A DNA stretch of 32,000 nt from Candidatus Saccharimonadota bacterium (GTDB taxonomy: Bacteria; Patescibacteriota; Gracilibacteria; BD1-5; UBA2023), in assembly GCA_046350815.1 (NCBI GenBank), contig JAXLZO010000001.1:900001-932000 (forward strand), written 5' to 3'. The notes beneath the pieces were generated by a model. It made no database searches, was not told where the DNA came from, and saw only the letters and a program-made list of their open reading frames with translations. Positions 27,175-31,303 of this stretch are shown piece by piece. A program made the position numbers and the translations under genes. Position 1 is the first letter of the stretch. Each line of letters starts with the position of its first letter.

Positions 27175-27353
27175 AATGGACCCCCCATGAAAACAAGAAT
27201 GTAAATGAACAATCCTATCTTGCGACAGGAACTTTTGTATATTATATATTATTCATAAATATGCAAGTACTATAAAATCAGATATTTTTCATAGTACTAT
27301 CAAGCGTTTTGCCTAAAATACACCAAAATAGAGTTATTTTTCACAAAGAAATA

Positions 27354-27381
27354 TTGACAATATCATTCACATCTTTAATAT
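27354..27381 (+). promoter_or_regulatory. sigma70-like promoter upstream of the first tandem RNA element
   Basis: TTGACA (27354-27359), 16-nt spacer, TAATAT (27376-27381). Confidence 0.45.
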
Positions 27382-27423
27382 GCACCTTGCAAATGATTTC
27401 TAAAATATTTCATGAGTCATATA

Positions 27424-27540
27424 CATACTTCGTTCTGGTCATACTATTTCTTTCTCGGATCTCTGAGAGGGTGTTTTATGGGCAAATAGATATATCTATG
27501 ATCCATGAAAAAACTTCTCACTGTTGGGAAGTTTTTTATT
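27424..27540 (+). repeat. tandem element copy 1 (~117 nt): conserved 58-nt core, variable tail, intrinsic terminator
   Basis: The 58-nt core CATACTTCGTTCTGGTCATACTATTTCTTTCTCGGATCTCTGAGAGGGTGTTTTATGG is identical to 27591-27648. It ends in a CTTCTCA-CTGT-TGGGAAG hairpin plus T6. Confidence 0.75.
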
Positions 27541-27590
27541 TGTGAATAAGTAGTCTCATTTTCTTTTTTATCTCGATGCATACCCATCAG

Positions 27591-27709
27591 CATACTTCGT
27601 TCTGGTCATACTATTTCTTTCTCGGATCTCTGAGAGGGTGTTTTATGGCATAGAAAGTATCTATAGTATCCATTTACAACCTTCTCACCAAGAAGGTTTT
27701 TTATTTTTT
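27591..27709 (+). repeat. tandem element copy 2 (~119 nt), ending 14 nt before the ATP-grasp gene
   Basis: Same 58-nt core. The tail shares TATCTAT..TCCAT with copy 1. Ends in an AACCTTCT-CACCA-AGAAGGTT hairpin plus a T run. Confidence 0.75.
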
Positions 27710-27722
27710 CTATCTACATACT

Positions 27723-28928
27723 ATGTCACGTACCAATATCATTAGTTACCCAGGTATTACCGCTGAGGCAGTTCCATTGCTCGATCCAACCACATGACAA
27801 TTTCTACCAGCAAAACATGCCTATGAAGCCGTACTCAATTGTGGTGGATTCTCTGTTATGCCAACACAGCTCGCGACAACCATCGCTACTAAATCAGCTA
27901 CGCACCTCAAAGAAGAGCACAAAATAGATGCTATCGGTTATATCAGTGATGAGCGAGTTCTCAATCATCCAAATTTCCTCTCTATTCGAGAAGTATTTGA
28001 AAGATTCTTCGGAAATCACATTCATACATTTGCAACGACTATAAGCAAACAGGAAAATAATCCATTCGGATTACGTGTGAATAGTACACAAGTATGCGAT
28101 GATAGTTCCATCGCTCAATTTGTGCAAGAGCATGGTGACGATGGGGTGATTCTTGCGAGTATTCCCATGAGCGATCCATGTGTGGCCAAAGTATTTGATC
28201 AACTAAGCGCATCAGATCATGATACTATTGCTGGGAAAACACTGAGAAACCTAGCACTCAACAGGGATCGATTCCTCCCAACGACGCTCGCACAAGATAT
28301 GAATGGATTTATCTGAAGCATTTCTTCTGCCGAGGAAACCATAGAACTCTTTGATACTCATCCAGATACAATCATTGTCCTCAAGTCATCACAATGATCA
28401 GCATGAGGAACAAATACATTTATTATTTCACCACATCAAAGAGCGGAATTTATGAGAAAAATAGAACAGATACACTTTCCTCTTCTGGCATACAATTTTG
28501 TTCAACCATTTTTGATAACAAATCAACAATGAAGTATTCACAGTGCTCACGTTCGATCATTTATTGTTGGCGATGAGCTTGTGGGTGGTGTGATCAAATT
28601 TCCAGGCGCTTCACTCAATAGGGAGTTATTTTGAGAAGATGGACGTATATCTCTCGATGTTTTTCGAAAAAAGAAAATTGAAGAAGTGAATAAACTTCTC
28701 AATAGCTCAAGTGGACTATCCAAATCAATGGTCTTCTCCCATGATGGTCAATTTCAATGAGGTTCTGATGGAAAATCAGGAATACTAACACTTGAAGATA
28801 CGCAATGATTGGGTATCTTTGGAACCAGTAATACTCTTCTTGATTCGATAGAAGAGATATTCAATTCAACTATTCCTCTTGTAACAACACTCCAAGAAAG
28901 AGTGAATAAACAACTACAACTTCGATAA
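27723..28928 (+). CDS. ATP-grasp-like amino-acid/peptide ligase (401 aa)
   Basis: Re-joined across 8 TGA. C-terminal half: 'IIVLKSSQG(TGA)SAG(TGA)GTNTFII', 'HVRSFIVGDELVGGVIKF', 'GILTLEDTQG(TGA)LG', reminiscent of RimK/GshB-type ATP-grasp folds. The N-terminal ~230 aa are unassigned. Confidence 0.5.
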
Positions 28929-28931
28929 TAT

Positions 28932-29762
28932 ATGCCTCACTCTACCTTATCAACCTTTGGAAATACACAGAAAGAACGAGCGGATATTCTCATCCTTCTC
29001 TTACATGCTGGGGAAGGATGAGAATATCTCGAATACGCGCAATCTGAGCTTGCTCATATTGACACTGGAATACTTCGATCCTATATGCTCCATGAAGCAG
29101 ATCGAGGTACTCATGAGGTAGGATTTCTCACTGCAGAATCCATCATCAGCAATGCCCCTCATATGAGATGTGATATATTCGAGATTCATATTCCCCGGGC
29201 ATTCCTTGATATGAATCGTCCAAAAGATGCTACCACTCCCCTCTTTCTCTCAAAGAATCACTGGAATGCATTCTATGATGATATTATGATTCATATTAAG
29301 AATGCATGTGAACAAGCAGATTATGTACTCCAGCTTCATAGTATGTGTGGGTACAATCCAACATTTCCAGGGCCACACAAACAGAATAAGATCGATAATT
29401 CTGTCCTACATAATTTTCTCAATCATTGCTATTCGGGTACAGAGCGATCATGGGATATGATTCATAGCACTCTGGATGGTCAAATACTTGCTCATCAGCC
29501 TTGGGTAGAGAGCTTTGAGAGTGTATTTCAGAAGGCATGAATTCCTCTGGAAAATAACAGTGCTTATCAACTTCTCTCTGGCTATCCAGGCACGGATATT
29601 ATGATAGAGCATCAGAGTGTGCTTATTGAGATGCCAAAAAATTGGCTCGCAAATGATGACACAAAACATCTCTTTGATACGAGTAAAATTGTATTCAAAC
29701 AAGAGAAGGTACAACAAGCAGCTGATCTCATTGCAGAGGGTTTTCTTCGTATGAAACAATAA
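28932..29762 (+). CDS. N-formylglutamate amidohydrolase (FGase)-family hydrolase (276 aa)
   Basis: 'LILLLHAGEG', 'EADRGTHEVG......IFEIHIPRAFLDMNRP', 'VLQLHSM' fit the FGase family pattern. Two in-frame TGA. Starts 3 nt after the ATP-grasp stop. Confidence 0.55.
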
Positions 29763-30817: not shown

Positions 30818-31303
30818 TTATTTGCGTAACAAATTAATCTGGCGAACGAGACTCTCTTCGAGGGCTGAGAGTCGCTCAAGTTGTTTGGTTTCGAGATTTT
30901 GATGTTCTTGAATCTCCTGCAGATCATGAAGTGCTTTTTCAAAGTTCTCATACATCTCCATCTGCATCTTGCGAATATCCTTACCTTTGGACATGCGCCT
31001 CTCGATGAAGAGTGCTCCCGTATAGGCAAATATTGGAAGTGCGACAATAGCATAACACATCGCGAGTACCTTGCCTATATCCGTATGCGGAGCAAAATCA
31101 CCATACCCAACACTCGCTACCGTAATCACGGTAAAATAGAGGCTATCAAGTAGAGTCCATCACTCGATGAGATGAAATGCATATGCTCCGATACAAATAA
31201 GTGTTAGGAGTAACAGTACCTCTAACTGAATCAGTGATGGGAGCGAAAGTCTATTGAGCCAAGCCCTGAGGCGAGTTATATGAATGGTGTATTTGAGGGA
31301 CAT
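30818..31303 (-). CDS. small 2-TM potassium channel (161 aa) with a coiled-coil C-terminus
   Basis: Selectivity filter 'TVITVASVGYGD' between two hydrophobic helices. One in-frame TGA. ATG 31303, TAA 30818. Confidence 0.85.

Follow-up and report, generated by a model that had tools for sequence, protein, structure and literature searches.

Two leader units ahead of an ATP-grasp-like operon

We analyzed a pair of near-identical units that lie in tandem on the plus strand of a 32,000-nucleotide (nt) stretch of contig JAXLZO010000001.1 (positions 900,001 to 932,000) from a Candidatus Saccharimonadota bacterium. The whole stretch is hereafter called the window, and coordinates are counted from its first letter. 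Each unit, A and B, contains a short open reading frame (ORF) and ends in a hairpin followed by a T run. The units are placed between a promoter and two genes, the first of which encodes a 401-residue ATP-grasp-like ligase (27723-28928, +) and the second a 276-residue zinc amidohydrolase-like protein of the N-formylglutamate amidohydrolase (FGase) fold (28932-29762, +). The promoter is of the sigma-70 type (27354-27381, +) and consists of TTGACA (27354-27359), a 16-nt spacer and TAATAT (27376-27381), with matches at 10 of 12 positions. A scan between the two units found no second promoter. The T run of unit B ends 14 nt before the ATG of the ligase gene at 27723.

The two units share a 58-nt core (27424-27481 and 27591-27648) that is 100% identical between the copies, and their similarity reaches 98 nt at 85% identity when the diverged tails are included. 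When the 32-kb window was searched with a 45-nt core probe allowing up to three mismatches, two copies were found, both at this locus, whereas none is expected by chance. The promoter, the perfect duplication with its alignable tails, the hairpin plus T run at the end of each unit and the 14-nt distance to the first gene had all been described in an earlier, sequence-only reading of this DNA, and every one of them was reproduced here.

Each unit carries a leader ORF of 25 codons that starts with ATG: ORF-A (MSHIHTSFWSYYFFLGSLRGCFMGK followed by a stop codon; 27412-27489, +) and ORF-B (MHTHQHTSFWSYYFFLGSLRGCFMA followed by a stop codon; 27576-27653, +). Both are situated 3' of the promoter and 5' of the first structural gene, and they have an identical register relative to the core. 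No in-frame TGA occurs in the leader. Both contain a run of mostly aromatic codons, F-W-S-Y-Y-F-F, at 27433-27453 in unit A and at 27600-27620 in unit B. The frame and the start of ORF-A, as well as ORF-B (start at 302), are kept in a close relative, L003, in which a longer in-frame version of ORF-B that starts inside unit A is not conserved; this longer ORF was discarded. Searches of the leader peptides against Pfam and NCBIfam gave no match. It was also observed that His residues alternate at the N-termini of the peptides (SHIH and HTHQH in the window, 27415-27429 and 27579-27596; NHTH and HTHTH in L003), and that His flanks Trp in one of the distant relatives described below, L018 (WHHYLSHW).

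The sequence-only reading had taken the GAGAGGG at the end of the core as a Shine-Dalgarno-like site and the ATG behind it as the start of mini-ORFs (ATG-GGC-AAA-TAG and ATG-GCA-TAG). Neither assignment holds. The supposed mini-ORFs are the last codons of the 25-codon ORFs that start at 27412 and 27576, and GAGAGGG is the 3' arm of a hairpin within the ORF. A Shine-Dalgarno-like motif was found within 25 nt upstream of 2 of the 26 predicted gene starts in the window, which further argues against GAGAGGG as a ribosome-binding site. Translation initiation in this host appears to be largely independent of Shine-Dalgarno sites.

Alternative helices and the position of the ribosome

Folding of the units revealed four segments that can pair in alternative ways. 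In unit A, segment 1 (CUUUCUCGG, 27450-27458, +) is encoded within codons F13-F14-L15-G16 and is joined to a lower stem whose 5' arm begins at about 27436. Segment 2 (CUGAGAGGG, followed by UGUUUUA; 27463-27478, +) has either segment 1 or segment 3 as its partner. The 1:2 hairpin, which lies inside the ORF, thus reads CUUUCUCGG-AUCU-CUGAGAGGG and is followed by UGUUUUA; when extended by the lower stem (27434-27486), it has a predicted energy of -17 kcal/mol and a z score of -3.0. Unit B has the same arrangement at 27617-27645 (+), with segment 1 at 27617-27625, a loop, segment 2 at 27630-27638 and UGUUUUA. The leader ORF passes through segments 1 and 2, and its stop codon is found about 16 nt beyond segment 2. 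Segments 3 and 4 form the terminators. Terminator A (27508-27541, +) consists of segment 3 (AAAAAACUUCUCA, 27508-27520), a CUGU loop, segment 4 (UGGGAAGUUUUUU, 27525-27537) and a T run, and its hairpin has a predicted energy of -13 kcal/mol (z -5.0). Terminator B (27678-27709, +) consists of segment 3 (AACCUUCUC), an ACC loop, segment 4 (AAGAAGGUU) and a T run that extends to 27709, with a hairpin of -8.5 kcal/mol (z -4.6).

Besides segment 1, segment 2 has a second complement in the 5' arm of the terminator. UGAGAGG and CUUCUCA of unit A form a 2:3 duplex of -8.8 kcal/mol (p 0.006 against dinucleotide shuffles), and in unit B, UGAGAGGG pairs with CCUUCUCA to form a duplex of -11.2 kcal/mol (p 0.002). 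The sub-folds that contain these antiterminators reach -21.6 kcal/mol in unit A (27460-27524; z -4.5) and -18.2 kcal/mol in unit B (z -3.1). In the antiterminator fold, AUGG at the end of the ORF also pairs with CCAU of the TCCAT tail, which is the conserved part of the alignable tails. The full units likewise fold more stably than shuffled sequences (z -4.2 and -3.9). In silico, the 2:3 antiterminator is mutually exclusive with both the 1:2 hairpin and the 3:4 terminator. This layout appears to be the four-segment arrangement (1:2, 2:3 and 3:4) of a ribosome-mediated attenuator.

A mechanism can be proposed from this layout. RNA polymerase would transcribe the 25-codon ORF, and the 3' half of the ORF would fold as the 1:2 hairpin, whose following U-rich tract is a likely pause site. 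When the ribosome translates smoothly to the stop codon, the 1:2 hairpin would re-form or segment 2 would stay covered, so that the 3:4 terminator forms and a transcript of about 150 nt is released. If, instead, the ribosome stalls on F-W-S-Y-Y-F-F because of uncharged tRNA, segment 1 would be covered and segment 2 would be free to pair with segment 3, which would block the terminator and let the polymerase read on. Two such units in series would multiply their read-through fractions, and the response should therefore be tighter and steeper. For the host itself, we infer coupling of transcription with translation, pausing, actual termination and the amino acid that is sensed.

The effect of ribosome position was evaluated by a mask model, in which the bases under the footprint were held unpaired and the A site was advanced codon by codon; a two-sided footprint was used for the equilibrium probabilities. 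With the A site at Y11-F13 in unit A or at T7-F15 in unit B, the minimum-energy fold mostly changed to the 2:3 antiterminator, an exception in unit B being the A site at S11. With the A site upstream of those codons, or anywhere between F14 (unit A) or L16 (unit B) and the stop codon, the fold consisted of the 1:2 hairpin and the terminator. Under the mask, the equilibrium probability of the terminator in unit A decreased from 0.94 to 0.39-0.51; in unit B it decreased from 0.84 to 0.03-0.14 at most such positions and to 0.50 at S11. It returned to the unmasked level after the ribosome had moved past. In the model, therefore, there are codons at which segment 1 is covered while segment 2 is free, and the effective stalls are on Tyr-Tyr-Phe just after Trp. 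Such behavior of the model follows the logic of a classical attenuator, in which only a ribosome stalled on the aromatic run frees segment 2.

Relatives, genetic code and regulated enzymes

The close relative L003 encodes an ATP-grasp-like protein that is 89% identical to that of the window and retains the promoter, the two ORFs and the two terminators. Its cores, at about 137-194 and 318-375, are in positions orthologous to those of the window units. The cores are identical within each genome and differ between the window and L003 at four sites, and the tails behind the ORFs are orthologous. It follows that the duplication is old and that the cores undergo concerted evolution, which suggests gene conversion between the tandem copies (spacing about 167 nt). 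Three of the four core changes are nonsynonymous (T/I, G16E and G20R) and one is synonymous; G16E and G20R are present in both L003 copies. A G-to-A change in segment 2 converts a G-U pair into an A-U pair in both the 1:2 and the 2:3 helices, and the terminators have retained their stems but not their loop sequences. As far as sequence comparison tells, these changes suggest that it is the RNA and the codons, rather than the peptide, that are constrained. Both promoter hexamers are invariant between the window and L003, whereas the upstream and flanking sequences have diverged. About 60 nt upstream of the window promoter there is an inverted repeat (AGTACTATAAAA / TTTCATAGTACT, 27266-27298), a counterpart of which was not located in the 60 nt of L003 sequence upstream of its promoter, and a terminator-like hairpin was called at 27213-27230 on the minus strand.

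At each of the distant loci (28-34% identity), a short ORF precedes the homologous gene pair. The ORF of L002 (MTRNFVASWYMYLFIGFRGIFS) contains an in-frame TGA that is read as Gly, and that of L001 ends in QNIWYQYLSHWR. L018 has two tandem units with their own terminators and the ORFs MFSSRLNSSWHYTITSRCGIVA and MKRSQLWINIWHHYLSHWR, and L020 has MRTQNFSFWYFISS and a second ORF. The ORF of L017 contains MAYWIFFEIF, and that of L016 (MLFSKWTFLCFINSFSKTKSFL) precedes a gene pair in which an M20 peptidase replaces the FGase-like protein as the partner enzyme. Tandem units thus occur also in L018 and L020, and the 5' end of L001 opens with another terminator. A small ORF with Trp followed by an aromatic residue was found in 6 of 7 lineages (window/L003, L002, L001/L018, L020, L017 and L016), and such ORFs were enriched over shuffled sequences with per-locus p values of 0.005-0.14. 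The lengths of the leader ORFs range from 14 to 32 residues across the lineages, and their termini are not conserved.

The 2:3 complementarity recurs in these loci. The p values against dinucleotide shuffles were 0.001 in L020, 0.013 and 0.033 in the two units of L018 (L018a and L018b), 0.058 in L016 and a weak 0.22 in L002. The pairs found in distant lineages (CUCACGG/CCGUGAG, UGGCGG/CCGCCA, GUGGGAUUU/AAAUCCCAC and CUAAGAG/CUCUUAG) show that the helix sequences are unrelated among lineages; segment 2 nevertheless always occupies the 3' end of the ORF, with a U run behind it. When the per-lineage p values were combined by Fisher's method (by hand), the 2:3 pairing reached about 1e-6 and the ORF motif about 2e-5. 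The operon continues with trpS in L001 (TIGR00233, 232.6 bits versus a cut-off of 176.75) and in L013-L015; trpS is absent from the window operon.

Several details of the relatives' leaders were recorded in addition. In L002 (60-128), the in-frame TGA (Gly) is located in an internal hairpin loop and aligns with a GGA Gly codon of the window peptide. In L001 (74-215), the frame past the TAG stop of the leader reads FFSLLFGTGFRISS, which resembles the C-terminal part of the L002 peptide (YLFIGFRGIFS) and may either have remained from a longer ancestral ORF or be due to chance. In L020 (439-486) and L013 (5900-5992), a small ORF spans the last terminator-like hairpin before the ATP-grasp-like gene, and the spanning ORF of L013 ends 8 nt before the start codon of this gene. 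With such a layout, translation itself might melt the terminator.

The closer relatives have in common with the window that they read TGA as a sense codon. When TGA was treated as sense, ORFs of 150 codons or more in the window (G+C 38.5%) summed to 17,856 codons, up from 3,190, and the TGA codons align with Gly, one instance being the SAGGT motif that is conserved in the ATP-grasp-like family. The host therefore uses genetic code 25, as do Gracilibacteria and Absconditabacteria. The ORFs that need TGA read-through include 30818-31303 (-) and the ligase gene itself, which is readable only if TGA is a sense codon.

The sequence-only reading had named the downstream gene an ATP-grasp gene. There is no Pfam match for the 401-residue protein, and a sequence search against solved structures in the Protein Data Bank gave noise only; the claim is upheld by a weak RimK match (E 1e-3) and by structure prediction. 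An AlphaFold2 model (predicted local distance difference test score, pLDDT, 86.8) matched PurK, Ddl, PsnB, GshB (glutathione synthetase) and GspS in Foldseek, with probabilities of up to 1.0 and low template-modelling (TM) scores. On this model, the protein is predicted to have the ATP-grasp fold. The 276-residue protein has a weak match to PF05013. The model of its L003 ortholog (pLDDT 92.1) gave 2odf and 2q7s, of the N-formylglutamate amidohydrolase fold, as the best fold matches (TM about 0.56-0.6), followed by a phage poly-gamma-glutamate hydrolase.

Both enzymes are very rare. The ATP-grasp-like family has 31 representatives among 1.84 billion proteins, the closer members of which are all from TGA=Gly contigs, and the FGase-fold amidohydrolase forms 16 clusters in 5.8 billion proteins; the gene pair recurs only in TGA=Gly contigs. 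Two FGase-like proteins with 57-58% identity, P0063 and P0065, come from contigs of 8.5 and 49 kb. Scans of a species-representative genome collection and of a viral collection found no relatives of the ATP-grasp-like family, so the host and its kin are missing from both collections. Among the matches listed in a search with a 14-sequence profile, which was limited to 8000 candidates, most were distant homologues from standard-code genomes, in contexts without the leader. The standard-code homologues at L004-L012 adjoin a 638-residue protein containing OTCace_N, a DUF8128/TrwB-like ATPase, NDK or purH, and their contexts contained neither a leader ORF nor an FGase partner. One cluster of these homologues includes a Nanoarchaeota protein, HIQ49909.1, from a metagenome-assembled genome.

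Competing explanations and comparison with known systems

We consider it probable that the locus contains two leader-peptide (ribosome-mediated) attenuators in series, which act from one promoter, read aromatic and Trp codons, and gate the operon of the ATP-grasp-like and FGase-like genes. Evidence in silico is provided by the ORFs, the helices, their mutual exclusivity and the recurrence of all these in relatives. Since Trp recurs across lineages and trpS is linked to the operon, charging of aromatic tRNA is favored as the signal; with moderate confidence, it is the charging of Trp and/or of Tyr/Phe that is sensed. The sequence-only reading had left open tandem attenuators, of a riboswitch or leader-peptide type, and paired small RNAs. 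The leader-peptide type is the one borne out by the ORFs, the three alternative pairings and the distant relatives, the riboswitch type finds no support in Rfam or in a core common to the lineages, and small RNAs may arise as by-products of termination.

Several observations weigh against the attenuator interpretation. The ORF of L013-L015 has 30 codons without Trp and a weak terminator, and unit b of L001 lacks a clear terminator. In the mask model, the Trp codon of the window is slightly too far upstream to uncover segment 2, although the position of the Trp codon itself is favorable in L020 and L018; since the stall sites in the model are Tyr-Tyr-Phe and not Trp, the specificity for the sensed residue is uncertain. 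Under the mask, the terminator dominates the equilibrium ensemble in L002, L016, L018 and L020, and no switch is observed there (the row for L018a is uninformative, as its arms were mis-registered). A switch in these distant loci would thus have to be kinetic. RNAalifold detected no compensatory double substitutions among the four close copies of the window and L003, because their divergence is too low. In addition, there is no known link between the regulated enzymes and aromatic amino acids, and the pyrimidine-rich codons for Phe, Tyr, Leu and Ser may in part be a by-product of the pairing of segment 1 with the purine-rich segment 2.

The main alternative is that the ORFs encode real precursor, scaffold or carrier peptides, because they travel with an ATP-grasp ligase and a hydrolase. 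The ligase would modify the peptide and the FGase-like or M20 amidohydrolase would trim it, as in pathways for ribosomally synthesized and post-translationally modified peptides (RiPPs) or in LysW-like systems, and the hairpins would act as leaky terminators, by which the peptide-to-enzyme ratio is set. The small ORFs do co-occur with the enzyme pair across lineages that are only about 28% identical, RiPP precursor genes typically exist in multiple tandem copies, and the pairing of an ATP-grasp ligase with an amidohydrolase resembles LysX/LysK. The ligase model also matches the graspetide ligase PsnB, but no better than PurK, Ddl or GshB and with TM scores below 0.3. Neither the window peptides nor most of the relatives' peptides contain the Asp or Glu needed for graspetide cross-links, and no precursor family was matched in Pfam or NCBIfam. 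The unconserved termini and the range of lengths, together with the radical replacements G16E and G20R in both copies of L003, also speak against a peptide under selection as a substrate, and such a function does not require the complementarity that is repeatedly found between segment 2 and the 5' arm of the terminator. We therefore regard peptide substrates as unlikely. Still somewhat less credence is given to a broader version, in which the Trp/aromatic-rich mini-proteins are substrates or scaffolds of the ligase and amidohydrolase in a new peptide pathway limited to TGA=Gly candidate-phyla bacteria, with the attenuator-like RNA as a second layer; such a pathway possibly draws on Trp-tRNA supplied by the co-operonic trpS. 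Two other functions of the peptides were considered and set aside. An arrest peptide like TnaC is unlikely, given the variable distance (5 to 19 residues) between Trp and the stop codon. Likewise unlikely is a small membrane toxin, for which the peptides (14 residues in L020) are not long enough.

The same four-segment architecture would also serve to detect disturbed translation in general, for example under an antibiotic that targets the ribosome or in global starvation, as do leader ORFs of antibiotic-resistance genes. In this case a stall anywhere over segment 1 would suffice, the effective stall window indeed covers several different codons, and auxiliary trpS genes are resistance determinants in Streptomyces. 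General stress sensing does not account for the recurrence of Trp, a rare residue, in 6 of 7 lineages or for the linkage of trpS to the operon in two, and nothing suggests that the enzymes act on antibiotics; we think it improbable. Tandem riboswitches or paralogous trans-acting small RNA genes, for which the ORFs would be incidental, are very unlikely. Each unit would release a structured terminated transcript of about 150 nt, and attenuator-derived trans-acting small RNAs exist, for example rnTrpL (PMC6614838). The elements are, however, always directly 5' of one type of operon, and what recurs across lineages is the ORF with Trp/aromatic codons and the helix geometry, not a nucleotide core of the kind by which a riboswitch or T-box binds its ligand or tRNA. 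The folds are plain hairpins without the multi-helix junction of a ligand pocket. When the window was searched with Rfam at gathering and permissive thresholds, nothing reached the gathering score; in the sequence-only reading, too, the core had not been recognized as any known riboswitch class. The best resemblance was to Phe_leader (RF01859), whose scores of 27.5 and 22.7 bits are below the threshold of 55 for membership; Trp_leader had no match in the window, and Rfam had none in five related loci. That the units are copies of a dispersed repeat or a miniature inverted-repeat transposable element, which the sequence-only reading had named as grounds for rejecting its proposal, has a negligible chance of being correct: the duplication itself speaks for it and nothing more, whereas the 32-kb window contains two copies, both at this locus, their positions and tails are orthologous in L003, and terminal inverted repeats are absent.

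If two attenuators in series are indeed present, the mechanism is a well-known one, and the example and the host group are new: this would be a clear case of classical ribosome-coupled attenuation in reduced, uncultured TGA=Gly bacteria of the Gracilibacteria/Absconditabacteria type, for which we found no described example of such a regulatory RNA in the literature. The leader also offers a way to approach the function of two enzymes that are very rare and unannotated. If the operon is gated by Trp or other aromatic codons and is accompanied by trpS in some lineages, the ligase and the amidohydrolase probably help to supply or salvage aromatic amino acids in organisms unable to synthesize these. 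Short leader ORFs of this kind escape notice when an incorrect genetic code or a minimum ORF length is applied to such genomes, and the present leader could seed a new RNA or leader family model.

The units resemble the leaders of E. coli trpL and pheL and the pheST leader pheM in having a short ORF with a cluster of codons for the sensed residue. As in the trpL/pheL class, the 1:2 hairpin is followed by U residues, and the 2:3 antiterminator and the 3:4 terminator are exclusive. Unlike in the classical leaders, the stop codon lies after segment 2 instead of between the first two segments, and codons for Trp, Tyr and Phe occur together in one run. The regulated genes also differ, being an uncharacterized ATP-grasp-like ligase and an FGase-like amidohydrolase, and so does the host, which uses TGA=Gly and has almost no Shine-Dalgarno sites. 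Classical attenuators are located upstream of trpS and pheST, and others have been predicted before Streptomyces trpS/trpS2 (PMC1262725). The presence of trpS in the regulated operon of two related lineages is a point of likeness to these attenuators.

Leader-ORF attenuators in tandem are known from the Salmonella mgtCBR leader with its ORFs mgtM and mgtP (PMC3641672). There, too, two short leader ORFs are arranged in series, and each controls alternative stem-loops and transcription into the coding region. The mgtCBR ORFs sense different signals and are unrelated in sequence, whereas the present units are near-identical paralogues maintained by concerted evolution, each with its own canonical intrinsic terminator. 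Tandem riboswitches and T-boxes likewise place two complete sensors, each with a terminator, in series and thereby sharpen the response; the sensor proposed here is a translating ribosome on an ORF and not an RNA that binds a ligand or tRNA. The locus also has in common with the graspetide pair PsnA/PsnB that one or sometimes several short ORFs lie directly upstream of an ATP-grasp enzyme. The present peptides are far shorter than graspetide precursors and have neither an acidic acceptor nor a conserved core or leader motif, and alternative pairing of the RNA explains the pattern of conservation better than does a graspetide precursor.

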